This document shows, piece by piece, positions 42,089 through 59,252 of a DNA stretch of 64,000 bases. This DNA comes from Oscillospiraceae bacterium (GTDB taxonomy: Bacteria; Bacillota; Clostridia; Oscillospirales; Oscillospiraceae). Within the stretch, counting starts at the first letter, position 1. Each line of letters starts with the position of its first letter. The stretch spans positions 505 to 64,504 of the forward strand of contig CACZUK010000002.1 in assembly GCA_902784305.1 (NCBI GenBank). The letters are read 5' to 3'. Under the pieces are notes generated by a model. That model ran no database searches. It was not told the DNA's origin and was given only the letters and a program-made list of their open reading frames with translations. The position numbers and the translations under genes were made by a program.

Positions 42089-45000
42089 CTATTTCACCTG
42101 AACGCTGACCCATCTGGCAAGCCCATTCCGGGCGTAAACGTACACCCGGCACCGCCCCGGTGCCACGCCGGTGACCCGGCCCTTCTCGTCCACCGTCGCC
42201 ACCGTCTCGTCGCCGCTGACATAGCGGAACTCCCGGACGAGGGTTTTGGAGAACAGCCGCTTCTTGGGGCTAATCCGCACAGTTTTTGTGCGTATTTTGC
42301 TCTTTTTGCCCATTTTCAGGCTCAGAGATGTGGTTTTCAGTTCAATGCGCCGGGCGTTGGTGTAGTTTGGATTCCTGCGTCCCACGGCGTAAACCTGGAG
42401 GCTCACCGCCAGCGTCTTCTTGCCGCGTTTGGCTTTGACGACGGCCCGCCAGTCGCCGGAAAGCTTCAGTTTTTTGCCGTTGAGTCTGGTGATGCTCACG
42501 CTGCACGGCCCGCTCTTCTTCACCGTCCGCGTCGGCTTGCTGCCGAAGGGTGTGCTGCCGTCCTGCACCCAGACCTCATAGCGGTCCGCGCCCGTCACCG
42601 CGCCCCAGCGTAGCCGCAGTGCGCTGCCGCTCTGGGTGAAGGTCAGCGCGCTGTTGAGCTCAATAGCCGCTTTGGTCATGGTCTGGAACACCCCTGCCGC
42701 GGACGCGCCGGAGGCCCTGTGGTTGCAATCCTCCCGCCGCCGTGTCACCACGCTGTAACGGGTGGAGGGGTGCAGCTCTGTGAAGCGTCCGTCGCGTTGC
42801 CAGGTCTTGCCGCCGTCGATGCTGTACTCCTGTCCAGCCACGGCCTTCACGCGCAGCTCCGTGAGCCCCGCTTTCTTCAGCACCGGCGCGGCAGGCGTTT
42901 TCTGCACGGCTCGTTCGATGTCCACACGCAGCTCCCGCGGTGGGATTCCGGCATAGCGGCTGTCGCCGTCGAGCTTGTACCACACACGATACTGCCCCGC
43001 GTCAGTGGCAGTGGGCACCTGTGCGCTGTACGCACCGTTTTTGCTCAGACTGTACACCAGCGCGCCGCGGGAAGCGCTGCCCGCTGTGACCAGCACCTGC
43101 GCCCGGCCGGAGTACACCAGCCCCCGTACCGCCTCCGGCGGCGTGAGCACAAGCCTGGGAATCGGCGTCTGCCGGGTCTTGCCGCACCCGGAGCAGGTCT
43201 CCTCCCAGAAGCCGTCTTCCTCCTCGGTGGCCAGCTTTACCGCCGTGCCCCCGGTCCAATGGTGCCCCGTCTCCGAAATCCACGCGCTAATAATCTCCTT
43301 CGTACACGCCGCATCGGCGTAGAGCTTGCCGGTGCGCTCCACCAGCCAGCACTCCCGCATCCCCGGCATGATGCAGGTGGGCGCCCGGCCGGGCTGGTGA
43401 ACGGCCTCGTACTGAATCGGCACGTTCAGCATGGCGCCTGGCTTCACGCCCCTGGCCGGGTCGGCCTGCTCCGCGAAGGTGTAGGTTCCGGGGGGCAGCG
43501 GCAGACCGTTGCTGTCCGTCACCTCCACGCTGCCGGTCAGAATCCGCCCGCCCGGTCCGGCAAAGTAGTAATCCCCGGCATAGAGCAGCAGCCCGGCCGC
43601 GCAGCGCTCGCCGTCGGCGTAGTAGTACCACGCGCCGTCCTCCTGGACGATTTCCGTGCCCAGGCTCTTGCTGTAGTCATCAAACCAGGCGGCGCGCTGG
43701 GTCATCCAGCCCTTCAGATAGGCCAGATTCGGCTCGTAGGCGGCCTTCTCCGCCGCCGTCTCGGAGATGTAGGGCCAAACGGCAAAGTTGCGTGCGATGG
43801 CCTCGGAATACTGCGCCGCCTGCTGGTCCAACCAGCCGCCGTCCGCAAAGAGTGCGCGCGCCGCCGGAGCGAGCACCGCGTAGCGCTTCGCCACCAGCCG
43901 CCGGAACCACTTCTGATGGATAAGCCTGGAAAAGTAGTGACAGCTCTCCACCAGGGACCCCCTGCTGCTCAGCTTCCTGCCCGTGAACAGCCCTAAGCTC
44001 AGGTCGTTGTCCCACTCCGGCCCGGCGCGGAGCCTTCCGTCCCGCCAGTGGAAGTAGACGGACAGCTTGCGGAAGTCCGGATTCTTCACGAACTCGTTGA
44101 TCACGTAGTAATCCGCGAAGGATTCCACATCCACGAGGGCTTCCACCGCCGCCTTGGAGCCGTCCGCGAGCGCGGCCTCCACCTGATTCATCCGCGCGGC
44201 GGCGTCGTCGGCACCCTGCTGGCTCTCCGGCTCCCGAATCCGGTAGAAATAGCCGGATTGGGTCCTGAAATAGAATTCATCCTCCTCCTGGCGCCGTTCC
44301 ACGTCCATCTCAATCAGGAAGCCGTCCTCGCCCACGTCCACCACGTCCTCCACCTTCTGGGTGAGCAGGTACACGCCGCGATACTGCCCGTCCATCCAGA
44401 CCTCCACGCGCCGGTAATCCGCGGCGGGAAATCCCAGCGCCCGGCACAGCTCAAAGGCCACGCTGTTGCGCAGGAGGGTCGGGTCGAAGTAATCCGCCAG
44501 CAGGCACCATTTCTTCGACTTGTCCATGCCGAAGAGTCCGGCCTTTGCGGAAAGCTTCAGGTTGTAGGGCTTCTTCTCCTTCTTTGCGGTGGAGTTGCCG
44601 TGGATTTTCACCTGGGCGGCGGCGTCCTGAACCTGAACGGCGCCGTCCACATCCACCGCCACGGCGGCGGCGCTCACATAGCCCTGCTCCTTGGTCAGAG
44701 CCGCGCCGTAGGACGTGCCGCTGCCGTCGTCGGTGGTCAGATAGACCTGGGCGATGGTTTCGTCGTGCCGGTACACCAGGCCGCTGACCGCCGCCTCCAG
44801 CGCTGCGGTCAGCGCGTTCAGCACGTCCGGGTCGGACTCCTCACGCTCAAGGGCCGCGTCGGCCTCCTCCACAGCGGCGGACAGGGCGGCGGCGCTCTCC
44901 GGCGTGCAGTAGACCTCCGTGAAGCGGGGCACCCGGCTCCGGACCTTTCGGAGCCTGTCCGTGGGTATGCCCCACACCCCGTCCGCGGAGCAGCGGGGGA

Positions 45001-46081
45001 GGAGCGCGGAGACATCCGCGGCGCTGTAATCGGCCTTCTCGGTGTCGGCCTTGTTGTCGTCCGTGTCCCGGAAGTGCTTGCGAATCACGGCATTCTTTTT
45101 CGACTGCCAGTCGTGAACCTGCCCCTCGTACACGGCGGGAATCTGACTGGCCTTGCTCCCGCCTGCCACGCTGAGCATGTCCACATAGCCATTCACGACC
45201 GGGGCGTGGGCGGCGTTGTCGAAGACAACGGACTCCGGCGCGAGCAGCTCTGCCGTGGACAGCAGCACCACGGACAGCCCCTTGTTGTTCAGCGGGATGT
45301 CCCACTGAGCGTCAAAGCGCTCCAGCGTGCGCTGCTCGTCCACGGAGGCGCCGCTGGCCGCGCAGCGAATCAGAAAGGAGCAGTGGGCGGGAATCGTGCC
45401 GCTCAAATTCAGCTTCTGCCACGCCCCAGAATCCCCCGCGGCGCGGTACTGCACAGACCAGCCGGACAGGTTCACCGCGTCCTCTGTGGGGTTGTAAAGT
45501 TCAATAAAGTCGTGGGAAAGCAGCTCAGATTCGCCTTTGCTGCCGTAAATCTGCTCAATCACCACATGGGGCGCGCTCACGTCATAAGCCGCGGCCGGGG
45601 CAAGGGGCGCGGGCTCCTCGCTCTGGTCTGGGGATGTGTCCGGCTCCGCTGTGGACTCTTCACTCTGGTCACGGGACTCATCCGGCTCCGGCGCGGATTC
45701 CTGGCTCTGGTCCTGGGACGCGTCTGGCTCTGCTGCGGACTCCTCGCGCTGGTCACGGGACTCATCCGGCTCCGCTGCGGACTCCTCACTCTGGTCCAGG
45801 GGCTCATCCGGCTCCGCCGCGGACTCCTCGCTCTGGTCCTGGGGCTCATCCGGCTCCGGCGCGGATTCCTGGCTCTGGTCCTGTGACGCGTCTGGCTCCG
45901 CCGCGGACTCCTCGCGCTGGTCACGGGACTCATCCGGTTCCACCGCGGATTCCTCGCTCTGGTCACAAAGCGTTTCCGCCGCCTGCCCGGACAGCTCCGC
46001 CGCTTGAACCGGGCACAGCGCCCCGCAGACCATCCCCAGCGTCAGCAGCAGCGCGACCAGCCGTCTCAGCTTGTTTTTCAT
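42089..46081 (-). CDS. giant secreted protein: signal peptide, acidic 14-aa repeats, lamin-tail domain, CotH kinase-like domain, Ig-like repeats, C-terminal Big_2
   Basis: MKNKLRRLVALLLTLGMVCGALCPVQA signal. LTD-like FIELYNPTEDAVNLSGWSVQY. CotH-like KKPYNLKL....DKSKKWCLLADYFDPTLLRN..AFEL...G......Y.RVEVWMDGQYRGVYLL. Big_2-like end ATVDEKGRVTGVAPGRCRVYVYA. GGAGA RBS before the ATG at 46081. Confidence 0.85.
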   Translation of the reverse strand: MKNKLRRLVALLLTLGMVCGALCPVQAAELSGQAAETLCDQSEESAVEPDESRDQREESAAEPDASQDQSQESAPEPDEPQDQSEESAAEPDEPLDQSEESAAEPDESRDQREESAAEPDASQDQSQESAPEPDESRDQSEESTAEPDTSPDQSEEPAPLAPAAAYDVSAPHVVIEQIYGSKGESELLSHDFIELYNPTEDAVNLSGWSVQYRAAGDSGAWQKLNLSGTIPAHCSFLIRCAASGASVDEQRTLERFDAQWDIPLNNKGLSVVLLSTAELLAPESVVFDNAAHAPVVNGYVDMLSVAGGSKASQIPAVYEGQVHDWQSKKNAVIRKHFRDTDDNKADTEKADYSAADVSALLPRCSADGVWGIPTDRLRKVRSRVPRFTEVYCTPESAAALSAAVEEADAALEREESDPDVLNALTAALEAAVSGLVYRHDETIAQVYLTTDDGSGTSYGAALTKEQGYVSAAAVAVDVDGAVQVQDAAAQVKIHGNSTAKKEKKPYNLKLSAKAGLFGMDKSKKWCLLADYFDPTLLRNSVAFELCRALGFPAADYRRVEVWMDGQYRGVYLLTQKVEDVVDVGEDGFLIEMDVERRQEEDEFYFRTQSGYFYRIREPESQQGADDAAARMNQVEAALADGSKAAVEALVDVESFADYYVINEFVKNPDFRKLSVYFHWRDGRLRAGPEWDNDLSLGLFTGRKLSSRGSLVESCHYFSRLIHQKWFRRLVAKRYAVLAPAARALFADGGWLDQQAAQYSEAIARNFAVWPYISETAAEKAAYEPNLAYLKGWMTQRAAWFDDYSKSLGTEIVQEDGAWYYYADGERCAAGLLLYAGDYYFAGPGGRILTGSVEVTDSNGLPLPPGTYTFAEQADPARGVKPGAMLNVPIQYEAVHQPGRAPTCIMPGMRECWLVERTGKLYADAACTKEIISAWISETGHHWTGGTAVKLATEEEDGFWEETCSGCGKTRQTPIPRLVLTPPEAVRGLVYSGRAQVLVTAGSASRGALVYSLSKNGAYSAQVPTATDAGQYRVWYKLDGDSRYAGIPPRELRVDIERAVQKTPAAPVLKKAGLTELRVKAVAGQEYSIDGGKTWQRDGRFTELHPSTRYSVVTRRREDCNHRASGASAAGVFQTMTKAAIELNSALTFTQSGSALRLRWGAVTGADRYEVWVQDGSTPFGSKPTRTVKKSGPCSVSITRLNGKKLKLSGDWRAVVKAKRGKKTLAVSLQVYAVGRRNPNYTNARRIELKTTSLSLKMGKKSKIRTKTVRISPKKRLFSKTLVREFRYVSGDETVATVDEKGRVTGVAPGRCRVYVYARNGLARWVSVQVK
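45620..45955. repeat. 42-bp (14-aa) in-frame tandem repeat, 8 copies, inside the CotH gene
   Basis: Units EESA(A/V)EPD(E/A)(S/P)(R/Q)DQ(S/R) are repeated at both protein and DNA level. Confidence 0.85.
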
Positions 46082-46199
46082 TTTGCTTTCTCCTATCCCG
46101 CAGCTTTTTGTCCATTTCTCCTCCATTATTCCATAACTCACTGCCTTTTGCAAGAATAAGAGAAGAGTTTTTATCAATCTACACCATGACAGCGCGGAC

Positions 46200-46416
46200 T
46201 TCAAGATGACGCTGAAGAAAGGCGCCTGCACCATCACCAAGGCCACGCAAAGCGCGCCCGCCGCCCCAAGCTGTCCGATCAATACTGGACGAGCATCACC
46301 GTAGAATCATCAGAATCAAAGGCATCACCCTCACTCCCAGGGGCAAGGGCACCTGCACGCTGTACGTCTGCGCGCTCAACGGCAAAGAAGAGAAGATTAA
46401 GGTCGCCGTAACGTAA
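46200..46416 (+). pseudogene. degraded remnant of a Big_2/surface-protein C-terminus
   Basis: Three frames successively read KMTLKKGACTITKATQSAPAAP, then PKLSDQYWTSITVE, then IIRIKGITLTPRGKGTCTLYVCALNGKEEKIKVAVT*. The last mirrors the GRCRVYVYARNG....V.V end of the neighbouring CotH protein. At least two frameshifts and no start. Confidence 0.35.
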
Positions 46417-46556: not shown

Positions 46557-49500
46557 CTATCGCCAGTATCCAATGGGATTGTTCGGCTGATTTTTCACGC
46601 TGTCCGCCGCGTACTGCGCGCGCTCAAACCGCGTTTCGATTTCCGGCTCCTGCTGCGCGTTGGGATAGATTCCGATTCTGACGCTGAATTGGCCGGCCAG
46701 CTGGTCCCCGGCATACACATCGGCCAAAAACTCCCGCATCAGCTGCTCGTGGTCGCTCTGATGGGGACAGTAGAACCAAAACGTATCGCCCGCTTTTCTG
46801 CACCCGATGCCGCCGGTTTTGCGAATCAGATTTTTGATTCCGCCGCCGATGCTCTTCAGCACCTGGTCGCCGAACCGCCTGCCGTGCTGGGTGTTGACCG
46901 CGGAGAACTGATTGACATCGCAGACAACGGCGTCGAAGGCGGTTCCCTTCTCGTATTGGTCATAGCGGCTCACATAGCGGATGAAATAATTGTGATGGAA
47001 CAGGCCCGTCAGCTTGTCGCGCTGTGTGCGCCGAATCAAATCGCGGTTGACAGACAGCTCAATGCATTTTGCGATTCTGGCCTTGACGATTTCAATGTCG
47101 GGATAGGGCTTGGGAATGAAATCCATCGCGCCCATTTTCAGACATTCCAGCTCCGCGTCCTGGTCAACGGTCAGGACGATGACGGGAACCGACATCAGCT
47201 CCTCATCCGCCTGCATCTGAGCCATCACGTCCCGGCCTGTCATGTTCGGCATGTACAAATCGAGAATCAGCAGCGCGATTTCGTTTCTGTGCTTGCGGAG
47301 CATTTCCATGACCTCGGCGCCGTCCGAGGCGTAGAAAATATCGTACTCATCCTGGAGCAGGTTCCCCAGGATTTCGCGGTTGCTCTCGATGTCATCGGCA
47401 ATCAGAATATGCTTTCGCGTGTTGATTGCGGGCATTTCCACACAGGTGACGGCGCAGTATCCGGGATAGATGATCTGGCGGGCGGAGAAGTGGTAGTGCT
47501 TGCCGTTGAGCGGATTGTCAAACTCGCCCTCCACCGTTTTTCCGTCCAGGGCGGCGCGCTTGACATCCTGATACCATTCATTCCCGAGGTAGGGAAACAG
47601 CTCTCTGACGGTGTGGCCCACCAGGGATTTCGTCGGCAGCTCGGCAAACTCTTCATACTTGTGGTTGACGTAGAAGAAAACCGCGTCATAGAGCCCGCTG
47701 TGCTCCGCGTAGGTCACATGATAGACGGAATAGGGCACGGGCAGGTCGTCAAACAGGTAGAAAATCTCCGACGCGTGCTCGATTCGGTTCTCCGCGGAGA
47801 TGGTCTGGTCGTAGTCCGCGTGCAGGCGCATTTCCGCGTTCTTGATCTGCTCCTCCAGGTCCAGAAACTCGGAATAGCGCGCATAGCCCACGGACAGGTA
47901 CAGGGTGATGGGCCTGCCGTCCACCTCCCGGAGCGCCTTGCCGATGTCCCTGGCCTTATCGCGGAGCTTTTGCGCCTCTTCCTTGCTCTCAATCTGCTGA
48001 AGCACGGTGAACTTGCGTCCGGCGTAGCGGCCGACGGCGCTTCTGTGTCCGAAGCCCTGCTGCAGCGCGCGGCCAAAGGCGTTGAGCACCTTGTCGCCAA
48101 AATCGAAGCCGTACTGCGCGTTGATTGCGTTGAAATCGTTGATGCCGATGTGGATGCGCACGAAATCCGTCCCCCGCAGATGATACTCATCCTGCAAGGC
48201 GTCGGCGGACTCCGAAATGCCGCGGGAATTGAGCAGTCCGGTGAGCAGCTCCCGCCGGGAGGACTCCTCGCCCTCTTCGTTCATGCCCAGAGACTCCTTG
48301 TCCACAAAGGAGCCCAGAAGTCCCGTAATCTCTCCATTGACATCGTAGAGGGGTGTTTTGCTGGCCAGAATCTCCTTGTTCTCTCCGTTGCTGATGCAGT
48401 TGCCGGGGATGTTCCGGAAGACCGTGCCCTCGTGAATCACCTGGTATTCGTCGTTTTTGTACAGGTCCGGGTGGACATGCCAGCCCAGCTCCTCGTCGGT
48501 CCGGCCGACGATCTCCTCCGCGGAGGAGAAGCCGTAAAAGTCCAGAAAGCCCTGGCTCGCGCCCAGGAACCGGCGCTGATCGTCTTTCCAGAACACGCGG
48601 AACAGGGGGGAGCGCACCAGATTGCTCCAAAGCTGCGCCGGAGCGTAGGGCCCGTCCCCGGAGGTCGTCACTGCGTTGCTGGCGATGAAGCTCTTTGCGA
48701 TGGCGTGGATGTTCCGAACCAGCATAAAATAGTTGGCCTCGTCGATTTTCAGCAGGGTGTATTCCTTCCAGGCGTACTGACCGTGCCGGACGCTGGTCCG
48801 ATACACCTCGGAGAAGCTGATGCTGCCGCTCTCCCGCAGATGCGCCGTGGCCCGATCGGGGTCAAAGGCGCGGACGAAGCGGTTTTTGTCCTCGGGATAG
48901 ATGTACTGCCGGGCGTATTCCTCCACCAGCTTCTTGATGCCGCGGCGGTTGGAGAGCAAATCCTCCCGCGTATCCGTGTACAGGGGCCGGATGGTGTCCT
49001 CGGCGTAGTTCAGAAGGGTGACGCGCTCAAAAAATCCGTAAATCTGCCGGACATTGGCGTCCAGCTGGGTCGTTTTCTCCGACTGCGTGTCCTTGGTCAG
49101 ATTGGTGATGCGGATGAGGACGCAGAACTTATCCTTCGTCCGGGTCATGCAGCGCGCCTGAATCTCGTAGTACTGCTCGTTGATGGTGAAGAGCATTCTG
49201 CCGTCCCCGTCCACTCTGACGGAGTCCATCAGGTTCCTGATTTTCCGCGGAAGCAGGTTCAGGGGCTGCGGCTGGCAGAGCGCCTCCTGTGTAAACACGC
49301 CGTGGAAGAGCGCGGCGCTCTGCGCGATTTCCTCGAAGGCGGAGTTGTAAAACAGAACCCGGAACTCCCCGGCAGTAAACTCGGCCAGGGTCAGCGGGAT
49401 GCTGTTGAGCTGCCGCGCAGTGGTCAGGGAGTCGTTCTCCTCCCGGGTCATAAACGGAACCGCGCTGAGGAAGTTGATGCCGCCGATGTCGTCGTAGAAC

Positions 49501-50303
49501 TGCCGGTCCTGGGGCGGCTCGATGCGGATTCCCTTTTCCCGCAGATTGTCCAGGGCCTGGTCATAGGGCATGGGCTTGCCGAAGTAATAGCCCTGTACCT
49601 TTTCACAGCCGATGTCCCGCAAATAGGCGTACTGCTCCTCGGTCTCCACGCCCTCGGCCAGGGTGTGGATGTAGATGTCCTTTGCCATCTTCACCACGGC
49701 GGTCACGATGCGTCTGGAGCGCAGATTGAAGGGCCGCAGAAAGCTCATATCCAGCTTGAGCTCGTCAAAGGAGAACTCCTTGAGGGCGTTCAGGGAGGAG
49801 TAGGCGCTGCCGAAGTCGTCCATCCAAATCTGATAGCCCGCGGAGCGGAACTGATTCACGATTCCCGTCAGCAGCTCCTTCTGTTCCGCCATCACGCTCT
49901 CCGTGATTTCAAAATAGACGAAGTCGTGGGGAATCTGGTAATCGCTGACGATGTCGTCCGCAACGGTAAAGATGTCGCACAGCGTGAAGTCCAGGCGGGA
50001 GAGGTTGACGGAGACCGGAATGGGCGTCTCACCTTTGGTGATGCAGCTGCGAAGCCGGGCGCAGACCTGCCGGAGAATGGCCGCGTCCAGCAGATGAATC
50101 AGCCCCGCCTTTTCCAGCACCGGGATGAACTCATCTGGATAAATCATGCCGATTTCCGGGTCAATCCACCGCGCCAGGGCCTCAAAGCTGCACAGCTGCC
50201 TGGAGGAGGTGCGGATGACCGGCTGATAGAAAGCCTGAATCTCGTGGTAATCTATGGCTTTTTTGTAGTTTCTGATGATAAAATCTTCCAGATTTCTTCC
50301 CAT
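46557..50303 (-). CDS. EAL (N-terminal), PAS-like regions, degenerate GGDEF, REC, degenerate GGDEF signalling protein
   Basis: N-terminal YQPVI...FEALARW, EITES, DDFGSAYSS, KLD, EGVE, QGYYF. Mid GGDEF position reads YAGRKF. REC reads ILIADD...LILDLYMP...PKP. Last GGDEF position reads KAGDTF. Start trimmed to the ATG at 50303 (MGRNLED), preceded by GGAAGGGAG. Confidence 0.9.
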   Translation of the reverse strand: MGRNLEDFIIRNYKKAIDYHEIQAFYQPVIRTSSRQLCSFEALARWIDPEIGMIYPDEFIPVLEKAGLIHLLDAAILRQVCARLRSCITKGETPIPVSVNLSRLDFTLCDIFTVADDIVSDYQIPHDFVYFEITESVMAEQKELLTGIVNQFRSAGYQIWMDDFGSAYSSLNALKEFSFDELKLDMSFLRPFNLRSRRIVTAVVKMAKDIYIHTLAEGVETEEQYAYLRDIGCEKVQGYYFGKPMPYDQALDNLREKGIRIEPPQDRQFYDDIGGINFLSAVPFMTREENDSLTTARQLNSIPLTLAEFTAGEFRVLFYNSAFEEIAQSAALFHGVFTQEALCQPQPLNLLPRKIRNLMDSVRVDGDGRMLFTINEQYYEIQARCMTRTKDKFCVLIRITNLTKDTQSEKTTQLDANVRQIYGFFERVTLLNYAEDTIRPLYTDTREDLLSNRRGIKKLVEEYARQYIYPEDKNRFVRAFDPDRATAHLRESGSISFSEVYRTSVRHGQYAWKEYTLLKIDEANYFMLVRNIHAIAKSFIASNAVTTSGDGPYAPAQLWSNLVRSPLFRVFWKDDQRRFLGASQGFLDFYGFSSAEEIVGRTDEELGWHVHPDLYKNDEYQVIHEGTVFRNIPGNCISNGENKEILASKTPLYDVNGEITGLLGSFVDKESLGMNEEGEESSRRELLTGLLNSRGISESADALQDEYHLRGTDFVRIHIGINDFNAINAQYGFDFGDKVLNAFGRALQQGFGHRSAVGRYAGRKFTVLQQIESKEEAQKLRDKARDIGKALREVDGRPITLYLSVGYARYSEFLDLEEQIKNAEMRLHADYDQTISAENRIEHASEIFYLFDDLPVPYSVYHVTYAEHSGLYDAVFFYVNHKYEEFAELPTKSLVGHTVRELFPYLGNEWYQDVKRAALDGKTVEGEFDNPLNGKHYHFSARQIIYPGYCAVTCVEMPAINTRKHILIADDIESNREILGNLLQDEYDIFYASDGAEVMEMLRKHRNEIALLILDLYMPNMTGRDVMAQMQADEELMSVPVIVLTVDQDAELECLKMGAMDFIPKPYPDIEIVKARIAKCIELSVNRDLIRRTQRDKLTGLFHHNYFIRYVSRYDQYEKGTAFDAVVCDVNQFSAVNTQHGRRFGDQVLKSIGGGIKNLIRKTGGIGCRKAGDTFWFYCPHQSDHEQLMREFLADVYAGDQLAGQFSVRIGIYPNAQQEPEIETRFERAQYAADSVKNQPNNPIGYWR

Positions 50304-50401
50304 GGCGGTGGGCACTCCCTTCCTGGCTTTTTGAGGCAGCGGTATGCTGGTCCAACCGGGCACCGGGGCATTGTCCAGGTACACACATCTATTTTTAACA
50401 A

Positions 50402-50430
50402 AGTGTACCACAAAATATTTCGTTTTGCAA
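50402..50430 (-). promoter_or_regulatory. candidate promoter (TTGCAA-N17-TACACT)
   Basis: Reverse complement hexamers at 50425-50430 and 50402-50407. Confidence 0.45.
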
Positions 50431-50634
50431 GTAAAAGCGGAGATTTTTATGTTCCTGAAACGATGGCTGCCGGTTCAGAGGCCAGCGGGCAGGGGAGGGG
50501 GTTGCGCCGCCCCTAAGCCCTCTTTCCGCTCTGGAGAAGCGACGGGCAGGGGAGGGGGGCTGCTCGCCGCGGTTTCTCTCCTCACTCAGCGCGTTCAAAT
50601 GAGTCATCCTTAGCGAACCACCCGGCCCTCCGGG

Positions 50635-50675
50635 ACAAAACGAGGCGGAGGCAGCTTGTCGAAGGCTGCCTCCGC
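50635..50675 (-). terminator. intrinsic terminator after the SIR2-TPR gene
   Basis: 11-bp stem gcggaggcagc/gctgcctccgc, followed on the minus strand by ctcgttttgt. Confidence 0.7.
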
Positions 50676-50768
50676 TTAGTTCCATGTACAGACCGCTTTT
50701 GCAAAGCGCGGGAATAACGTCTTAGCTGCGTGAAATCGGTCAAAATGCCGGGTTTACCACAGCCCCGC

Positions 50769-52802
50769 TCAGTCCAAATCCGGGAGACCGGCGGCGGTCT
50801 TCTCGTCCTGCTCGGCGAGGTCGGTTTTACCGATGGCGCGGTAGGCGGCTGCGCGATTGAGGTAGGCAAGTTTGTTGTCTGGCTTCAGGGAGATGGACTT
50901 GGTGATAGACTCAATGGCTTCTGAATAGCGCTTCAGATGACGCAGCGTATTGCCGCGGTTGTTGTAAGCAAACGCGTAATCCGGCTTGAGCTCAATTGCT
51001 TTGTCGTAATCGGCCAGCGCTTTGTCGTGTTCTCCCATGTCAGAGAAGTAGTTTCCACGGTTGTAGTACGCCACCGCGTAATCCGGCTTGAGCTCAATTG
51101 CTTTGTCGTAATCGGCCAGCGCTTTGTCGTGTTCTCCCATGTTAGAGAAGCAGCTTCCGCGGTTGTAGTACGCTTCCGCAAGATCCGGCTTGAGCTCAAT
51201 GGCCTTGTCAAAATCAGCCAGCGCTTTGTCGTGTTCTCCCATGTCGGAGAAGCAGCTTCCGCGGTTGCAGTACGCATTCGCGTAATCCGGCTTGAGCTCA
51301 ATTGCTTTGTCGTAATCGGCCAGCGCTTTGTCGTGTTCTCCCATGTCAGAGAAGCAGCTTCCACGGTTGTAGTACGCCACCGCGTAATCCGGCTTGAGCT
51401 CAATTGCTTTGTCGTAATCGGCCAGCTCTTTGTCGTGTTCTCCCATGTCAGAGAAGCAGTTTCCGCGGTTGTTGTATGCTATCGCGTCATCCGGCTTGAG
51501 CGCAATGGCTTTATTATAATCGAGAACAGCTTGCTCCGGCTTTCCCCATTCACCATACCAGTACCCCCGCTCAAAGAACAAGTCCGCATCCTCCGGATAG
51601 CGTTCCAGCCCCTTGTTGAGCAGTTCAACCGCACCGCTGTAATCCTTCTGCTTTCCTTTCTCCTTGGCCTGACGGATATAGTCCCACGGAGTCAGCTTTT
51701 TCTCCTCTTCCCGTTTCTCCATGGACTTTCGCTCCGCCTCGTTCAGAGCGTCCACAACCGGGTTCGGCCTCAGTTTCCCCCACTGTTCGTTGTAAATCTT
51801 GATTCTCTGGGCCAAACGATCCTCCATCCGCTTCTCTGTGGCGGAGGGGATAATCGCCTCTCCGTAGCGGGCTTCGCCGATGGAGAGCATCAAATCGTCA
51901 AAGCCGCTGATTTCCACCAGATAGCCCTTCTTGTTCTGCACCAGCTCCAGAACCCTGTCGTCCGGCAGTTCTCCCCGGTAGCACCAGTAGATGCCGTTGG
52001 GCATTTTTGTCTCGATCTTTTTCAGAAAGCACATCAGGCTCTCATCGCCGCCGCCGTAGCCGATGACAATGGGCGTGTAAATGCGGAACAGCCCCTGCAA
52101 AGCCTCCTCCCACTTGGGGTCGAGCTTGGAGGTGTCATCCTGCGTATTCAGCGGGGCGAAGAACAGCCCTCTGTGAACCTTTGCAACAATGGGCCGCTGG
52201 ACATCGGGCTGAATAAACCCGGCCAGAGACTCGTGGCTGACCACCAGCGGCTTTTTGTCGGTGTAGAGGAAGAGTGCATCCTCCACGAGGGAGTCAAAGT
52301 TTGTGGTGATAACCAGATTGTGCCGAAAGTCCTTCTCTGTCAACAGCAGCGCAAGGGTCTGATAGCCCACACTGGGGTCGATATTCTCCATGATGCGCTC
52401 CATATAGCGGTAGCCGAGGGTGGGGTCGGGGTAGAAGCGCAGAGTGTAGATGTCAAAGTAGTATTTGCTGTCAATGCTGGTGTTGTCAGCCTTGGCCTTC
52501 TTCCACGCCTGTTCAATCTCCTCAAAGGGGTGGCGGAGCAGCTCGTCCTGCTCAAGGACTTTTCCGCTCCTGCGGGATTCCTCCGGATTCATTTTGAGGG
52601 TGCCCCGGTCATCGGCTTCCCCCATGATACAGTTCATCCACCGCATCTCCAGTTGATTGCCGGTGGGAATTCCGGATTCCACGGACGCACCGGAACCGAG
52701 GATGAAGCAGAAGCGTCTTTTGTAGCGATCCGATTCCGCCATCTGACGGAGCAGGACAGAAGTGCTCAGGATTCTGGATGGAGGGAAGCTATCTTTGGTC
52801 AT
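50769..52802 (-). CDS. SIR2-like (SIR2_2/DHS-like NAD-binding) domain fused to about 8 TPR repeats
   Basis: FILGSGASVESGIP, ITTNFDSL, VAKVHRG and IGYGGGDE follow the order of SIR2_2 family motifs (GxGxS, TTN(Y/F)D, K.HG, GYS..D). The C-terminal 250 aa are canonical 34-aa TPRs. Confidence 0.85.
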   Translation of the reverse strand: MTKDSFPPSRILSTSVLLRQMAESDRYKRRFCFILGSGASVESGIPTGNQLEMRWMNCIMGEADDRGTLKMNPEESRRSGKVLEQDELLRHPFEEIEQAWKKAKADNTSIDSKYYFDIYTLRFYPDPTLGYRYMERIMENIDPSVGYQTLALLLTEKDFRHNLVITTNFDSLVEDALFLYTDKKPLVVSHESLAGFIQPDVQRPIVAKVHRGLFFAPLNTQDDTSKLDPKWEEALQGLFRIYTPIVIGYGGGDESLMCFLKKIETKMPNGIYWCYRGELPDDRVLELVQNKKGYLVEISGFDDLMLSIGEARYGEAIIPSATEKRMEDRLAQRIKIYNEQWGKLRPNPVVDALNEAERKSMEKREEEKKLTPWDYIRQAKEKGKQKDYSGAVELLNKGLERYPEDADLFFERGYWYGEWGKPEQAVLDYNKAIALKPDDAIAYNNRGNCFSDMGEHDKELADYDKAIELKPDYAVAYYNRGSCFSDMGEHDKALADYDKAIELKPDYANAYCNRGSCFSDMGEHDKALADFDKAIELKPDLAEAYYNRGSCFSNMGEHDKALADYDKAIELKPDYAVAYYNRGNYFSDMGEHDKALADYDKAIELKPDYAFAYNNRGNTLRHLKRYSEAIESITKSISLKPDNKLAYLNRAAAYRAIGKTDLAEQDEKTAAGLPDLD
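50910..51521. repeat. 102-bp (34-aa TPR) tandem repeat, 6 copies, of which 4 (units 2-5) are near-identical at DNA level
   Basis: gtaatccggcttgagctcaattgctttgtcgtaatcggccagcgctttgtcgtgttctcccatgtcagagaag... recurs with few substitutions. Confidence 0.9.
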
Positions 52803-52833
52803 ATCTGTTCACACCCCTTTTCACTTTTCCATC

Positions 52834-52862
52834 ATTTTACAACATCCGACAGCCTCGGTCAA
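52834..52862 (-). promoter_or_regulatory. sigma-70-type promoter (TTGACC-N17-TAAAAT) of the SIR2-TPR gene
   Basis: Reverse complement hexamers at 52857-52862 and 52834-52839. Confidence 0.6.
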
Positions 52863-52953: not shown

Positions 52954-55101
52954 TTACGAATGTGCGCACAGGATACTTACCAGCGTATCCTTCAGCAAAT
53001 CAATGTCCACAGGCTTGGACAGATGCGCGTTCATGCCCGCCTGAAGGCAGGCGTTCACATCCTCCTCAAAGGCGTTGGCGGTCAGCGCGATGATGGGTAT
53101 CTTCGCGGCGTCCGGCCGGCTCAGACCCCGGATGGCCCGGGACGCGGCAAGACCGTCCATCACAGGCATGCGCATATCCATCAGAATGGCGTCAAAATGG
53201 CCCGCTTCGCTCTGCTCGAACAGCTCGACTGCCTGCCGGCCGTTCTGCGCCCATTCCGAGGTCATATCCTCCAGCTCCAGAATCTCAGAGAGAATTTCCG
53301 CGTTCATCTCCTGATCCTCCGCAATCAGGATGTGCCGCCCCACCAGGGAGACCGGCTCCTCCGACGGCTGCGCGTCTTCCCCGGCGGTGAGCGTCTGTTC
53401 TCCCGGGGCGCGCTTGAGGGGCACGGTGACCACAAAGGTGGAGCCGACGCCCTTTTCACTCTGGACTTCAATCTCGCCGCCCATCATATCCACAATGCTC
53501 TTGGTGATGGCCATGCCCAGACCGCTGCCCCCGTATTCGTTCGTGGTGCTGCCGTCCTCCTGGGTGAAGGACTCAAACAGCTTGGGAAGGAAGGCCGCGT
53601 CCATTCCGATTCCCGTGTCCGCCATGGTGAAGCGCAGCCGGGCGCAGTCCTCCGAGACAGGGCTTTGCTCCACGGTGAAGGACACCTCGCCGGGAGGATT
53701 GGTAAACTTCACAGCATTGCCCAGAATGTTGATGAGTACCTGCTTGAGCTTCAGGTCGTCCCCCAGATAGAACTCCTCCAGCGGTCCCACGCTGCCGGAG
53801 CGGAAGAGCAGCCCCTTGTCGTCACACTGTCCGTTGATGATGATGGAGACCTGCTCCAGCACCTCTGTCAGGGAAAAACGCTCCTCCTTCAGCTCCATGC
53901 GCCCGGATTCAATGCGGCTCATATCCAGAATATCGTTGATTAAGGTCATCAGGTGGCTGGCGCTGGCACCAATTTTTTGCAGATTTTCCCGGGTGTGAGG
54001 GGAGAGGCTTTCATCCCGCAGCGTCAGGCTGTTCAGGCCGATGATGGCGTTCATCGGCGTGCGAATCTCATGGCTCATATTGCTCAAAAACGTCGTTTTC
54101 GCCCGGTTGACCAGCTGTGCCTCCCGCGCCGAAGCGATGGCCAGATTCTTTTCGCTCTGATTGTAGAGGATGGCGAGGAACACCGCGGCTTCCAGCACGG
54201 CCAGCAGCACGGCCAGCAGCAGAATGAGCCTCAGCGGCCCGTAAAAGGCGTCGGTGTCAATCAGGGAGACGGCCTGCCAGCCCCCCTCAATCTGCTCAAC
54301 AAACACAATGTATTTCTGACCCCGGAAGTTCAGCTCAAACAGGTTCTCACTCCCGTTGTAGAGGCGCTTCGCCAGAGCCGCGCCCAGCGTATTCTTCTCC
54401 TCCCGGTAGTTCTTGCCCAGCTCCGCCTCGTCGGAATGGGCAATCACCTTTCCCGACTTGTCCAGCACGATTCCGCAGCTGCCGGGGTTCTGCTGGGTGA
54501 TGCGCTCCGTGATCGCCTGAATCCAGGTCAGCGGAACGTCCAGGGCGACGACGCTTTCCCCGTCCGAGAGCCTTCTGGCCAGGGTCGTAATGATGCCCCC
54601 GGTCTGGTCGTCCAGATAGGGCGTCACAAAGGTGATTTCACTCTTGTCCGCCATGGTCTCCTGATACCACGGGCGTTCGGTGGGCCGATAGTCCGCATCG
54701 GGCACCCATCCGACGCCGTCGCAGTATTCGCCCTTAATCCAGCCATACAGGCCGGTATAATCTTCGTCAATGGCCTTTTTGATGCTCGTGGACTGCGCGG
54801 TCAGGTAGTCCAGAATCTCCTGATTGTCTTTGCCGTCCCGAATCATCTCGTCCACCACATAGGCAGCCAGCATAACGGTGCTCTTTCGCACCAGAATGTA
54901 GTTGTCCAGCTCCTTGGCCGACTCCACCACGTTGACCCTGCCCTTGAGCTCGATGCTCTCCTTGGTGGAGGAGTAGAGCCTCCAGCCGCCGACGCAGGTG
55001 GCCGAAACCGTGAGCAGAAAGACCAGCAACGAGGCCAGAATGCTTTCCACGCCGATGTTTTTGATGACCTCCTGATGGTTGAATCCGCTTTTTCTGTCCA
55101 T
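52954..55101 (-). CDS. hybrid sensor histidine kinase (TM, Cache-like extracytoplasmic domain, TM, HisKA, HATPase, REC)
   Basis: H-box SHEIRTPMNAIIG, N-box NAVKFT, G-boxes DTGIGM and GSGLGMAI, and C-terminal REC ILIAED...ILMDMRMPVMDG. GGAGG RBS. Confidence 0.92.
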   Translation of the reverse strand: MDRKSGFNHQEVIKNIGVESILASLLVFLLTVSATCVGGWRLYSSTKESIELKGRVNVVESAKELDNYILVRKSTVMLAAYVVDEMIRDGKDNQEILDYLTAQSTSIKKAIDEDYTGLYGWIKGEYCDGVGWVPDADYRPTERPWYQETMADKSEITFVTPYLDDQTGGIITTLARRLSDGESVVALDVPLTWIQAITERITQQNPGSCGIVLDKSGKVIAHSDEAELGKNYREEKNTLGAALAKRLYNGSENLFELNFRGQKYIVFVEQIEGGWQAVSLIDTDAFYGPLRLILLLAVLLAVLEAAVFLAILYNQSEKNLAIASAREAQLVNRAKTTFLSNMSHEIRTPMNAIIGLNSLTLRDESLSPHTRENLQKIGASASHLMTLINDILDMSRIESGRMELKEERFSLTEVLEQVSIIINGQCDDKGLLFRSGSVGPLEEFYLGDDLKLKQVLINILGNAVKFTNPPGEVSFTVEQSPVSEDCARLRFTMADTGIGMDAAFLPKLFESFTQEDGSTTNEYGGSGLGMAITKSIVDMMGGEIEVQSEKGVGSTFVVTVPLKRAPGEQTLTAGEDAQPSEEPVSLVGRHILIAEDQEMNAEILSEILELEDMTSEWAQNGRQAVELFEQSEAGHFDAILMDMRMPVMDGLAASRAIRGLSRPDAAKIPIIALTANAFEEDVNACLQAGMNAHLSKPVDIDLLKDTLVSILCAHS

Positions 55102-55413: not shown

Positions 55414-58326
55414 TTACACTGTTCTCTCAACCTTGAGAATCTTCTGCTCAAACTCCGCCGCGGGCAGGGGCCGGGAGAAGTAATAGCCCTGCACCAAATC
55501 GCAGCCCGCGTTCTTGAGCAGCTTCAGCTGGCTCTCGACCTCCACGCCCTCGGCAATCACCGGCACCTTGAGATAGCCGGCGATGTCCACAATCAGCTCC
55601 ACCAGGCGCAAATCCTTCTCATCGCGCTCAATGTTGCGGATAAAGCCGATGTCCATCTTCAGCACGTCCACGGGGATGGAGGAGAGCATGTTCAGGGAGG
55701 AGTAGCCGGACCCGAAATCGTCCATTTCGATGCGGTAGCCCCGGTTGCGCAGCTCCCCAATGACCTGAATCAGCTGCTCGGCGTTCTCGGTGTAGGCGGA
55801 TTCCGTGACCTCCAGCGTCAAATCCTGACGGGCCAGCCCGTTTTTGATGACAATCGCGTCCAGCGTGTTGGCAAGCTCCGGGTCAAACACATCCACCCGG
55901 GACAGATTCACGGACACGGGCAGGGTCACGCCGCAGTCTCTGCGCCACAGGGCAATCTGACGGGCGGCCTGTGCCCACACGAACCGGTCCACCGCGCTGA
56001 TTTGTCCATTGCGCTCAAACAGGGGGATGAAGGCTCCCGGGGGAATCATGCCCAGCTCGGGATGCCGCCAGCGCACCAGCGCCTCGGCGCTGCAAAGCCT
56101 GGGCTGGTCCGGCCGGATGTCAAATTTGGGCTGGTAGTACACCTCCAGCTCGTGCTGCTCCAGGGCGCGCTCCAGGTCATTTTCCAGACGCTGGTTGTAC
56201 TCCTCCCGCTGCCGCAGCTCCTCACTGTAGACCATGAAGCGGGTCTGAAAATCCCGGCGCACCGCGCTGCTGGCGGACCAGGCGCAGGCCAGCATCTGGT
56301 CCAGGCTCAAATCCGCCTGCCAGGGCATGACGCCCATGCGCAGATGGATGTCGGAGCTGCCGGTGCTCTGGTTGATGCGCCCCTGAAAGCGCTCCAGCAG
56401 GGCGCCGTAGTCCTCGGGATGGGGACACAACAGGTCAAAGTGGTCGCTGCCCTCCCGTCCGGCGATGCCGCCGGTCTCAAAGGCGCAGGCCTTCAGCTCG
56501 TCGGCCAGCGTCCGGAGCAGCCCGTCGCAGAAATCCCGGCCCTTGAGGGTGTTGAGGGTGTGGAAGCGCTCGATGTTCAGCGCAATGGCGTCCATCGGCC
56601 TGCCCGGCTGCTCCTGCCGCCGCCGGTTGCCGTAGACGATGAAGAAGGAGCGGTTGTAGAGGCCCGTCAGGGGGTCCCGCTCCGCGGCGGAGATGATGGC
56701 CTTGCCCTCGGCCACCTTTGCCTCCGCGCGCACGCTGCGCAGCACCAGCAGCAGGAGCAGCACGGCAATCACAGCAATGGAGGCCACCACCGTGGGCAGA
56801 TTGTCCTGAATGAAAGCGCCGAAGGTCACTCGCTCCCCGGTGAAGGCATAGCCGGTCAGGGAGGCGTTCAGCGTCTCCTCGGGCAGCAGGCGCGTGACCT
56901 TGTTGAGGATGGAGAACAGGCAGTCGTCCTTCCGATTCACCGCGAAGGACATATCCATAATCTGGCCGGTGGACAGGGCGGTGAGGTGGTAGCGGTTCAG
57001 GTGCTCGCTGACTCGGTTAATGCGGTAGCTGCTCACCAGGGTGCAGTCCGCGTCTGAGTCGGAAACCGCCTTGAAGCAGTCCGCCACGCTGTCACATTGC
57101 AGAATCGTCCAGTTGGGAAAGTTGTCCTTCAAAAAGGTCTCATGGCTGGGATGGTTTTTCAGGACAGAAACCGTCCTGTTTTGGTCCTGGGAGAGGCCCT
57201 GCTGGTCCGCAGTCCGAACAATCGCGTACATACCCGTGCTGACGACGGGGTCCGAGAGAATCACGCCCAGCTGCTCGCCGTCATAGGCGCTGAGGTTGAC
57301 CGGAAACACGCAGTCCACCTCGCCATTCGTCAGGGCGCGCAGCGCGTCCCCGGTGGAGGGATAGGCAACGGTCTCAAAGCTCAGCTGCGCGTTTTTCTCA
57401 CAGGTTTCAGCAAACTCCAGATAGTCGGACAGCGTACCGGTGAGCTGCTGCGTGTTCTCCTCCTGGGTGCAGAACGGGAGGAATCCGTCCCGATACCCCA
57501 CGCGGATGGTGCCGTGTGCGTCCAGCCACTCCTTCTCCTCGGCGGACAGGAAGCTGTTGACGGAGCCGGCCTTGTTGTACTTTTCCGCCATTTGCTGGTT
57601 GAAATCCCGGTTCTCCTCCAGAATCCGGTTCATGGCCATGTCCAGCTCCTGCTTCAGGTCGGGACGGCTCTTGCTGATGCCAAAGTAGGAGACGGCGGAG
57701 CCCACCTTGCACACCGGCACCACATCCGCACTGGTTCCATAGGTGTCCAGCGTCACCAAGGCGTCAAACTCGCCCCGGGAGAGCATGTCCATCATCACCG
57801 GGGACTTTTCGGTGGACTCCACCACCTCTGGGTGCACGTCGTGGCTCTCCGCCCAGTCGAGGAAGAGCTGCTCCTGAATGCTGCTCTTGTTGACGCCCAC
57901 CCGCTTGCCGTTCAGGGTGGAGAAGTCGTCTGGCTGGATTTCCGTGTTGTCCGGAGCGATGAAGACGTAGTAGTCCTCAGAGCCCATGGCCTCGGCGGAG
58001 TACAGAATCCCTTTCGCGCGCTCCTCGGTGTAGGAAACGTCACTGAGCAGGTCGATTTCGCCCGCCATCAGCTTCTCGAAGAGCTCCGACCAGCTGCCCT
58101 CCACGTATTCGTAGCGCCAGCCGGTGTAGGTGGCTACACGCTGTTGATACTCGTAGCCATAGCCGGAGCGGCGTCCAAACTGGTCAGTGCTGTGAAAGGC
58201 CGACTCGTACCAGCCGACGCGAACCGTCTTCTGCTCCGTCTGTTCCGCGCTGGCGGGAAAGGGCATCAGCAGGCTCAGGGCAATCAGCACGCATAAGGAA
58301 ACGCTCAGGGCTCTTTTGGTGCGCAT
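55414..58326 (-). CDS. two periplasmic solute-binding (PBPb) domains, TM, degenerate GGDEF, EAL
   Basis: Signal peptide, then two SBP_bac_3-like halves. GGDEF position reads GSDHF. EAL set is intact (EALVRW, EVTES, DDFGSGYSS, KMD, EGVE, QGYYF). GGAGGAG RBS. Confidence 0.9.
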   Translation of the reverse strand: MRTKRALSVSLCVLIALSLLMPFPASAEQTEQKTVRVGWYESAFHSTDQFGRRSGYGYEYQQRVATYTGWRYEYVEGSWSELFEKLMAGEIDLLSDVSYTEERAKGILYSAEAMGSEDYYVFIAPDNTEIQPDDFSTLNGKRVGVNKSSIQEQLFLDWAESHDVHPEVVESTEKSPVMMDMLSRGEFDALVTLDTYGTSADVVPVCKVGSAVSYFGISKSRPDLKQELDMAMNRILEENRDFNQQMAEKYNKAGSVNSFLSAEEKEWLDAHGTIRVGYRDGFLPFCTQEENTQQLTGTLSDYLEFAETCEKNAQLSFETVAYPSTGDALRALTNGEVDCVFPVNLSAYDGEQLGVILSDPVVSTGMYAIVRTADQQGLSQDQNRTVSVLKNHPSHETFLKDNFPNWTILQCDSVADCFKAVSDSDADCTLVSSYRINRVSEHLNRYHLTALSTGQIMDMSFAVNRKDDCLFSILNKVTRLLPEETLNASLTGYAFTGERVTFGAFIQDNLPTVVASIAVIAVLLLLLVLRSVRAEAKVAEGKAIISAAERDPLTGLYNRSFFIVYGNRRRQEQPGRPMDAIALNIERFHTLNTLKGRDFCDGLLRTLADELKACAFETGGIAGREGSDHFDLLCPHPEDYGALLERFQGRINQSTGSSDIHLRMGVMPWQADLSLDQMLACAWSASSAVRRDFQTRFMVYSEELRQREEYNQRLENDLERALEQHELEVYYQPKFDIRPDQPRLCSAEALVRWRHPELGMIPPGAFIPLFERNGQISAVDRFVWAQAARQIALWRRDCGVTLPVSVNLSRVDVFDPELANTLDAIVIKNGLARQDLTLEVTESAYTENAEQLIQVIGELRNRGYRIEMDDFGSGYSSLNMLSSIPVDVLKMDIGFIRNIERDEKDLRLVELIVDIAGYLKVPVIAEGVEVESQLKLLKNAGCDLVQGYYFSRPLPAAEFEQKILKVERTV

Positions 58327-58704
58327 CTGTACAACTCCTCCGTTTCTACTCTCCTGTTTCTTCTCTGATGGGGACGGCGGAAGGGCCGCGTGTGCCTCCC
58401 GCGTTCAGCCGTCATCAGAACAACAGATTGTAAACACTTTGACTGTGAATCATTATAGCACGAGTCCCGACGGCTTTCCATAGTCTTTTCCCAAAAAGGT
58501 TGCTCTGCGACAGAAATCTCCTGAACGGGCCTGTCCGCTGCCTGTGCAGGGGACAAGCAGAGCGTTCTCCCGCCGTTTCCGCCTGTTTCCCACGGAATTG
58601 CGGAAAACCGCAACAGAATCCAGGCTGTCTGCCCACAAAAACGCCGTCTCACACGGCCGTCGGGAGGGGAATCGGCAAAAATTTACAAAGCTCAGAAAAA
58701 AGTG

Positions 58705-58757: not shown

Positions 58758-58831
58758 GCGGGTGTAGTTCAATGGTAGAATCCCAGCCTTCCAAGCTGGT
58801 CGCGTGGGTTCGATTCCCATCACCCGCTCCA
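58758..58831 (+). tRNA. tRNA-Gly(UCC), CCA encoded
   Basis: Cloverleaf folded by hand. Acceptor GCGGGTG/CACCCGC, anticodon loop CTTCCAA, T-loop TTCGATT. Confidence 0.9.
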
Positions 58832-58845
58832 TTCCAGCTTCATAT

Positions 58846-58919
58846 GCGGCTGTAGCTCAGTAGGATAGAGCAACTGCCTTCTAAGCAGTGGGCCGGGGGT
58901 TCGAATCCCTCCAGCCGTG
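58846..58919 (+). tRNA. tRNA-Arg(UCU)
   Basis: Acceptor GCGGCTG/CAGCCGT (G1-U72), anticodon stem ACTGC/GCAGT, loop CTTCTAA, T-loop TTCGAAT. Confidence 0.88.
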
Positions 58920-58955
58920 TTTTTCCGGCTGGCTGAGAGCTGGGACAATTGATAT

Positions 58956-59030
<75 letters not shown>

Positions 59031-59086
59031 CTTTTCCTTGACAGCCAGACGGTTGCATCCCTTCCGCTCTGGCTCTCTTTTTTCGA

Positions 59087-59158
59087 TGGGATGTCGCCAA
59101 GCGGTAAGGCAAAGGACTTTGACTCCTTCATCCGTGGGTTCGAATCCCGCCATCCCAG
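59087..59158 (+). tRNA. tRNA-Gln(UUG)
   Basis: Acceptor TGGGATG/CATCCCA, anticodon stem AAGGA/TCCTT, loop CTTTGAC, T-loop TTCGAAT. Confidence 0.9.
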
Positions 59159-59179
59159 CTCTGAACAATCCAACCATAT

Positions 59180-59252
59180 GACCCAGTAGCTCAGCTGGCA
59201 GAGCAGCACCCTTTTAAGGTGACGGTCCGGGGTTCGAATCCCCGCTGGGTCA
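59180..59252 (+). tRNA. tRNA-Lys(UUU)
   Basis: Acceptor GACCCAG/CTGGGTC, anticodon loop CTTTTAA, T-loop TTCGAAT. Confidence 0.9.

Follow-up and report, generated by a model that had tools for sequence, protein, structure and literature searches.

A SIR2_2–TPR fusion protein of gut and rumen Clostridia as a candidate single-gene abortive-infection system

The 64,000 nucleotide stretch analysed here (the window; Oscillospiraceae bacterium, assembly GCA_902784305.1, contig CACZUK010000002.1) carries on its reverse strand a gene for a 677 amino acid (aa) protein, in which an N-terminal sirtuin domain of the SIR2_2 type is fused to a C-terminal array of tetratricopeptide repeats (TPRs). We infer that this SIR2–TPR protein probably is a single-gene abortive-infection system, in which the TPR array would sense an invader, the SIR2 domain would be released or oligomerised and NAD+ would be depleted; we put the probability of this reading at about 0.58. 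The observations behind it are the architecture, the fold, the conserved catalytic set, the lack of a partner gene, the phyletic pattern, the defence genes found beside homologues in other genomes and the repeat-number alleles. The gene and its main parts are as follows.

50769..52802, (−) strand: SIR2–TPR gene, ATG start, 677 aa (open reading frame list)
51852..52802, (−) strand: SIR2_2 immune-type sirtuin domain, aa 1-317 (Pfam, PADLOC, AlphaFold2, Foldseek)
51690..51851, (−) strand: long helical linker, aa 318-371, with helices at aa 319-342 and 348-366 (AlphaFold2)
50790..51689, (−) strand: TPR superhelix, aa 372-671, nine helical hairpins (AlphaFold2, pLDDT >90)

The N-terminal domain is, as judged from sequence and predicted structure, an immune-type sirtuin of the SIR2_2 or 'SIRim' class with a complete predicted catalytic set. 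It is assigned to this class because of its matches in PADLOC, the PDB and Foldseek, its invariant catalytic residues and the absence of a Zn-binding Cys cluster. The Pfam SIR2_2 family (PF13289) scores 38.5 bits over aa 163-283 (cutoff 24.5), the canonical sirtuin family PF02146 is absent among the 25 of 35 Pfam families listed, and neither CxxC pairs nor a Zn-binding Cys cluster are present in the 677 aa sequence. The top PADLOC match is the model Aga_SIR2-PNTD1-PNTD2 (E 1e-34, aa 28-335), followed by a SIR2-fused model of prokaryotic Argonaute (pAgo; E 8e-31), and both profiles are covered in their SIR2 part only. A sequence search of the PDB (phmmer) gives no matches other than SIR2-APAZ chains from the SPARSA system of Geobacter (E 2.5e-9).

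The SIR2 fold was searched with an AlphaFold2 model of aa 1-370 (pLDDT 87.7, pTM 0.85), full-length Foldseek and PDB profile searches being dominated by TPR proteins. In this domain the Rossmann core carries a helical insert at aa 48-160, and the Zn-binding Cys4 module is missing. Its top Foldseek match in the PDB is the SPARSA SIR2-APAZ chain 8y80_E (E 1.4e-13, TMq 0.60), followed by ThsA, KomBC and DSR2; all 50 of the top 50 PDB matches are anti-phage sirtuins, with no canonical sirtuin deacetylase among them. Membership of the canonical sirtuin deacylases (CobB/Sir2) is contradicted by the missing Zn module and by the top 50 fold matches, all of them anti-phage sirtuins. The SIR2_2/'SIRim' class has been predicted to be immune as a whole, with defence systems 12-fold enriched in its neighbourhoods (bioRxiv 10.1101/2024.09.18.613514).

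The predicted active site comprises four elements.

52683..52697, (−) strand: GSGAS glycine-rich NAD-binding loop, aa 36-40 (family alignment)
52293..52307, (−) strand: TTNFD, aa 166-170, with predicted catalytic N168 and D170, aligned to the TTNFD of GsSir2
52173..52175, (−) strand: predicted catalytic His210 in an AKVH motif, aligned to H186 of SPARSA SIR2
52044..52046, (−) strand: Asp253 in a GYGGGD motif, aligned to D230 (GYSGRD) of SPARSA SIR2

N168, D170, H210 and D253 pair with N142, D144, H186 and D230 of GsSir2 in the PDB sequence alignment and are invariant in sets of 20 and 39 close homologues as well as in 65 distant representatives. Among the 39 close homologues the GSGAS loop does not vary either, and among the distant ones it is nearly invariant. 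By motif, N168, D170 and H210 correspond to N133, D135 and H171 of DSR2, where the mutations H171A and N133A-H171A abolish NAD+ depletion (PMC11850899), and the GSGAS loop is plausibly the equivalent, by motif without alignment, of the conserved NAD-pocket serine S51 of the same protein (PMC11850899). A sequence-only reading of the gene had singled out the catalytic Asn and His for confirmation, and both are in place (N168 and H210, aligned to GsSir2 N142 and H186). It had also described the motif order of the SIR2_2 family followed by about eight TPRs; all four of its motifs (FILGSGASVESGIP, ITTNFD, VAKVHRG, GYGGGDE) are found in the 677 aa product, Pfam gives SIR2_2 plus eight TPR_1 units and AlphaFold2 nine hairpins, so that this description is borne out.

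A catalytically dead SIR2 fold serving as scaffold or NAD sensor, or a gene in decay, is most improbable. Two active-site-proximal loops (aa 216-222 and 250-252) have low pLDDT and decayed remnants of the gene occur at three other loci (L056, L061 and L058), both of which would suit such an explanation. However, the four residues N168, D170, H210 and D253 never change, whether in close or in distant homologues, and neither does the GSGAS loop in close relatives; the open reading frame (ORF) is intact, and between strains the 345 SIR2 codons show 3 non-synonymous versus 7 synonymous changes.

The full-length AlphaFold2 model has a mean pLDDT of 87. By Pfam and NCBIfam there is no NTPase, APAZ, SLOG or further domain in the 677 aa protein, the linker being about 55 aa of helix. 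Pfam TPR_1 finds eight units from about aa 375 to 660 (E 1.9e-76), and Foldseek places the TPR half closest to designed consensus TPR proteins (37% identity) and to the TPR superhelix of OGT. NCBIfam detects the TPR families only, which is why homologues are publicly named just 'tetratricopeptide repeat protein'. A secreted toxin was considered and is ruled out, as signal peptide, transmembrane segment and secretion-associated domain are all absent from the protein.

The number of repeats differs between strains. The middle TPRs, which are near-identical, are encoded by a tandem DNA repeat.

50953..51512, no strand assigned: tandem 102-bp DNA repeat, 5.5 copies, 89% identity (TRF)

The contig of a second strain is 97.8% identical from the 3′ end of the neighbouring histidine kinase gene through the intergenic region and on into the SIR2–TPR gene for 1.4 kb, and carries an allele of 541 aa versus 677 aa, with exactly four 34-aa units fewer at the 102-bp array. 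An identical 677 aa protein is also called on a second ENA contig. Between the 677 and 541 aa alleles there are 18 changes in the last 83 codons versus 10 in the 345 SIR2 codons, about sevenfold more per codon; because synonymous and non-synonymous changes are both raised in these last 83 codons, they point to repeat recombination rather than to simple positive selection. Within one Oscillospiraceae lineage lengths of 542, 576, 610 and 644 aa occur with the first 340 aa 99-100% identical, and among the 120 best homologues 86 have a length within ±3 aa of 542+34k.

SIR2–TPR is a member of none of the systems SPARSA, DSR1/2, Thoeris, Avs5 and SIR2-HerA, because for each of them a defining feature was tested and is missing here. 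Nearest in SIR2 domain, both by sequence and by fold, is SPARSA (Geobacter sulfurreducens GsSir2/Ago; PDB 8jkz, 8jl0, 8y80), with which the TTNFD, AK(I/V)H and GY.G.D motifs are shared. Unlike SPARSA, SIR2–TPR is without APAZ and without an adjacent Argonaute gene, and its C-terminal half is a TPR array; nucleic-acid-guided sensing is for these reasons not expected. DSR1 and DSR2 resemble SIR2–TPR in being single polypeptides with an N-terminal SIR2 domain, C-terminal α-helical repeats and no NTPase, a likeness of working principle and not of membership: SIR2–TPR is about 300 aa shorter, lacks the MID domain and has canonical 34-aa TPRs in contrast to HEAT-like repeats. The fold match to DSR2 is also weaker (E about 1e-6), and the 17 PADLOC matches at E≤1 do not include a DSR model.

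ThsA shares the immune SIR2 fold and the conserved Asn/His pair (Foldseek E 6.5e-8), whereas the SLOG domain and a conserved ThsB/TIR partner of Thoeris are missing; one ThsB-like protein is found among 131 genes lying within two positions of homologues (±2 neighbours), and none in the window. Avs5 (SIR2-STAND) likewise joins an N-terminal SIR2 effector to C-terminal repeat sensing, but filaments are there driven by a central STAND NTPase (NOD), in the place of which SIR2–TPR has helices of about 55 aa. A HerA helicase neighbour, as in SIR2-HerA, is absent from the window and from the related loci. The TIR-II proteins of E. coli combine a TIR domain with TPRs, and anti-phage defence has been demonstrated for them experimentally; about 30% also have an ATPase domain (PMC11350192). 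They resemble SIR2–TPR in the pairing of an NAD-consuming effector with TPRs and differ in the effector, TIR in place of SIR2, without sequence relationship. Membership of the PADLOC candidate PDC-S65 was rejected, as the profile match is not full-length and covers the SIR2 core only (aa 163-306 to profile positions 141-284 of 592, E 6e-15).

In PADLOC 2.0 there is no dedicated full-length model for a SIR2–TPR protein, and the phrases 'SIR2-TPR' and 'TPR-SIR2' gave no papers in the literature searched, in agreement with the sequence-only reading, which had recognised no named defence system with a SIR2-TPR-only architecture and no NTPase. The one mention of this architecture is as a label in a tree of sirtuins (PMC12700824).

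That the nearest SIR2 domains are pAgo-associated leads to an alternative, namely that the protein is a conflict effector with an unlinked partner, Argonaute-like or signalling, an anti-plasmid system, or a toxin with an unlinked antitoxin. A Vibrio prophage homologue labelled pAgo__SIR2APAZ with no pAgo beside it, and TIR domains in two ±2 neighbours in other genomes, would be in line with this. We nevertheless regard it as distinctly unlikely: clustering of 805 neighbouring ORFs gave no family that recurs with the gene from lineage to lineage, no neighbour is conserved across 57 loci, the APAZ region of the top PADLOC profile is unmatched (the match covering positions 18-316 of 1010), no pAgo or PIWI gene is seen in the window, and the fused TPR array is already a plausible sensor.

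In the single-gene abortive-infection reading SIR2–TPR would be a cytoplasmic single-polypeptide sensor-effector. The TPR superhelix would act as the sensor, its concave groove binding a protein or peptide of a phage or other invader, and the bound ligand would lift the autoinhibition of the SIR2 domains or make them oligomerise. The activated SIR2 domain would then hydrolyse NAD+, and depletion would halt growth of the infected cell and block phage production. Recombination would lengthen and shorten the tandem run of near-identical middle TPR units, and recognition may be retuned in this way. Switching on by oligomerisation is common to ThsA, DSR2, SPARSA and Avs5. By analogy, DSR2 is the best working model and TIR-II the architectural precedent; NADase activity, trigger, oligomerisation and phage phenotype of SIR2–TPR are what we infer. 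DSR2 is activated by direct binding of the phage tail tube through the α-solenoid fused to its SIR2 domain (PMC11850899).

The family is large and its distribution is clearly patchy. A search with the N-terminal 370 aa returned 1474 proteins, the best 120 of which all combine SIR2_2 with TPRs at 53-61% identity and come from metagenome-assembled genomes of Lachnospiraceae and Oscillospiraceae. Among 1.84 billion cluster representatives there were 2531 matching clusters (50% identity) at E≤1e-3 and 598 at E≤1e-30; in the 65 distant representatives sampled SIR2_2 is present in 65 and TPRs in at least 53, and since the combination recurs at such distance the fusion is taken to be old and the family large. 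A scan of GTDB with one genome per species found 60 loci in about 58 of 185,579 species, a lower bound as the scan used two exact peptide patterns. Without exception these are gut or rumen Clostridia, two of them isolates, and the window protein is matched at 55% identity at most. One genome has two copies and one a tandem duplicate. At three loci only degraded remnants are left, with about the first 55 aa joined to one or few terminal TPRs.

L056, 10001-10568: degraded remnant
L061, 295-678: degraded remnant
L058, 10001-10326: degraded remnant

The remnant in L061 occupies the syntenic position of intact copies in sister species, which suggests recurrent gene loss by internal deletion.

In other genomes the gene is vertically inherited within genera and tends to lie at the edges of variable regions. 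In nine related Lachnospiraceae species it sits in a variable slot within the core cluster rseP–ispG–polC … ABC–rimP–nusA–infB.

L024, L029, L033, L035, L040, L042, L043, L060 and L061: polC–rimP slot loci, about 3-10 kb upstream of rimP

Its companions in this slot are AbiU (E 8e-45) in three species, AbiLi with AbiLii in one, PDC-S03/Uma2 in two and a HEPN-like NTase_sub_bind protein in three. The polC–rimP gap as such is a variable defence islet, the cargo of which varies by species and includes DUF6273. In Pseudoflavonifractor sp. 60 the gene is preceded by PDC-S39 (E 4e-98), PDC-S02 and three serine recombinases. In Oscillibacter it adjoins the serine-recombinase end of a prophage, and in a Lachnospiraceae locus it is flanked by a GNAT/LysR accessory block and by ylxM–ffh–rpsP.

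In one Acetatifactor species the SIR2–TPR gene is flanked by prkC–rsgA and, directly downstream, by IetA and IetS (L062, 11983-15293). Both members of this pair, the AAA ATPase and the S8 peptidase, are present and are followed by a SMI1_KNR4 immunity-like gene, and a related species (L002) has other genes at the same spot. Between two Acetatifactor species synteny stops directly after the SIR2–TPR gene. For the 131 remaining dereplicated ±2 neighbours PADLOC reports PDC-S66, a ThsB-like TIR protein, MADS components and RmrA, together with generic HTH, WYL and DEDDh proteins.

More distant relatives are found on mobile elements, where they occupy cargo positions. A plasmid of Photobacterium toruni encodes a 716 aa SIR2-TPR protein with 40% identity in the SIR2 domain, and in the Haloferax pleolipovirus Halfgib1 a 555 aa SIR2-TPR gene adjoins the integrase (L068, 2062-3729). 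Two Vibrio prophages carry genes for SIR2 proteins next to integrases (L069, 1354-3228; L070, 3971-5809); the C-terminal half of these proteins is uncharacterised, and one is annotated pAgo__SIR2APAZ although it is without pAgo. Plasmids of Methylobacterium, Rhizobium and Pantoea encode standalone 'SIR2 family proteins' near insertion sequence elements, an integrase, or a NERD-kinase and S8 peptidase.

The copy in the window lies in no recognisable defence island or mobile element. Its flanks are a hybrid histidine kinase gene (52954-55101), two genes for large GGDEF/EAL proteins, a CotH-like surface protein gene and a tRNA cluster. For this histidine kinase no orthologue with more than 70% identity was found, and its homologues of 68-70% are in unrelated contexts. 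The window as a whole encodes five GGDEF and four EAL proteins (e.g. 46557-50411 and 55414-58326) and many metabolic genes; its density of cyclic di-GMP signalling genes is unusual, and they lie to either side of the SIR2–TPR gene. A functional link to the cyclic di-GMP genes was considered and ruled out as coincidence, since GGDEF/EAL proteins account for only 2 of 137 neighbours in other genomes.

Several observations weigh against an abortive-infection function. In the 64-kb window no defence system, integrase or transposase is seen, and in the sole other strain contig found the gene occupies the same position, so that for this lineage no presence/absence allele is known. Known or candidate defence proteins are about one tenth of the ±2 neighbours, a proportion which is without a matched control and is suggestive, not quantitative. 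The SIR2 domain is 92% identical between two Acetatifactor species, equal to the flanking core genes, and because of this match the gene is taken to be vertically inherited under purifying selection there. In a scan of IMG/VR the Clostridial subfamily was not found on viral contigs. The TPRs are canonical and consensus-like, as in many housekeeping proteins, and the alleles come from short-read metagenome assemblies, in which collapsed repeats could yield some of the rarer allele lengths. The deviation in guanine-cytosine (GC) content, finally, is modest.

The GC content of the gene is 0.548 versus 0.602 for the window, the second lowest among 38 ORFs (z −1.8), and that of its third codon positions (GC3) is 0.714 versus a mean of 0.798 (z −1.25, fourth lowest). 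The dip is partly due to a TPR composition rich in Lys, Asp, Asn and Tyr; it is real but modest, makes the gene no outlier and alone is no proof of horizontal transfer. The sequence-only reading was right about the lower GC content, while its argument from this for recent transfer is weak. The co-location with defence genes which it had suggested looking for is seen in several lineages, with AbiU, AbiL, IetAS and PDC neighbours, and not in the 64-kb window.

Much of this would also fit a non-immune chromosomal regulator, in which the TPRs recruit a client and the SIR2 domain modifies it (by ADP-ribosylation or deacylation) or adjusts NAD+, for instance in stress, sporulation or signalling. The window is ordinary chromosome with many signalling genes, the gene is found in several genera with stable synteny beside the core operons rsgA, ylxM-ffh and rimP-nusA-infB, its SIR2 domain keeps the same evolutionary pace as the core genes around it, and housekeeping scaffolds typically have TPRs of the canonical form. 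We consider this explanation, the main alternative, rather unlikely. The Zn module for canonical deacylation is missing and the close structural relatives are all NADase immune effectors; a gene which is present in less than 0.1% of species representatives, and decayed in some, is a misfit with a conserved housekeeping role. There is moreover no conserved client or partner gene, defence genes are adjacent in several lineages, and plasmids and temperate viruses carry relatives.

As an abortive-infection system SIR2–TPR would be of a known kind, with a repeat sensor joined to a SIR2 NADase effector, which differs here in having canonical TPRs without an NTPase; as a candidate it is credible, testable and widespread, but a specialist would not be surprised by it. 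If the reading is true, it would add a compact SIR2 defence architecture made up of effector and canonical TPR sensor, without NTPase, APAZ/pAgo or signalling partner. Members of the family are common in Clostridia of the gut and rumen, whose phage defences are still poorly mapped and in which annotation pipelines overlook the enzyme domain. The family would provide a simple model for how a peptide-binding repeat array gates a sirtuin NADase, and for whether repeat copy number alters specificity, and could enter DefenseFinder and PADLOC. The broader proposal that these proteins are a widespread unnamed single-gene immune receptor family, in which strain-level gain and loss of TPR units changes invader recognition and the NAD+ effector works without an NTPase switch, is unlikely to hold. 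Should the family not be immune, it would represent a rare SIRim-type sirtuin with a housekeeping role.

Candidate signals for expression were read from the sequence around the gene.

52834..52862, (−) strand: σ70-like promoter match TTGACC-17-TAAAAT (consensus scan, 10/12 positions)
52811..52818, (−) strand: ribosome-binding site, purine-rich AGGGGTG, 9-15 nt 5' of the ATG (sequence reading)
50637..50675, (−) strand: terminator-like hairpin and short T-run, about 95 nt past the stop codon (sequence and fold)

The hairpin (50675..50645) reads GCGGAGGCAGC-9 nt-GCTGCCTCCGC, with an 11-bp stem without mismatch and a 9-nt loop, and is followed by CTCGTTTTG; its ΔG is −26.6 kcal/mol (z −4.3 versus shuffles). 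It was missed by the automatic terminator scan because of the 9-nt loop and the short T-run. Promoter-like sites number four in 3 kb versus 1.3 expected, so that TTGACC-17-TAAAAT is a consensus match only. A promoter and a terminator of its own had been claimed for the gene; the hexamers and the hairpin are present, the promoter with the qualification just given. The gene is likely to be monocistronic, as had been proposed, although no terminator was found between it and the upstream histidine kinase gene, 151 bp apart, and separation from that gene is to this extent less firm than claimed.

The non-coding stretch 50412-50768 (about 360-470 nt), which contains the terminator hairpin, lies before the downstream GGDEF/EAL gene and could contain a leader or regulatory RNA for that gene. 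Rfam finds five tRNAs only in the whole window and has no match in the intergenic region downstream of the SIR2–TPR gene. These five tRNAs (Gly-TCC, Arg-TCT, His-GTG, Gln-TTG and Lys-TTT) form a cluster at 58758-59253 on the (+) strand, about 6 kb away, beside which no integrase or attachment-like repeat is seen.

Four ORFs have a GC3 of 0.50-0.57, far below the rest: 32074-33027 (−), 24679-25020, 41701-42060 and 58305-58652. These are either not real genes or foreign, and as outliers in composition they surpass the SIR2–TPR gene. The gene at 42089-46282 (−) encodes 1397 aa with LTD, CotH and Big_2 domains and an N-terminal long acidic tandem repeat (…SEESAAEPDESRDQ…), and it is this repeat which gives rise to long spurious ORFs on the opposite strand. 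At the left edge of the window, 35-820 on the (+) strand encodes a Mbeg1-like protein (PF11187, E 8e-72).

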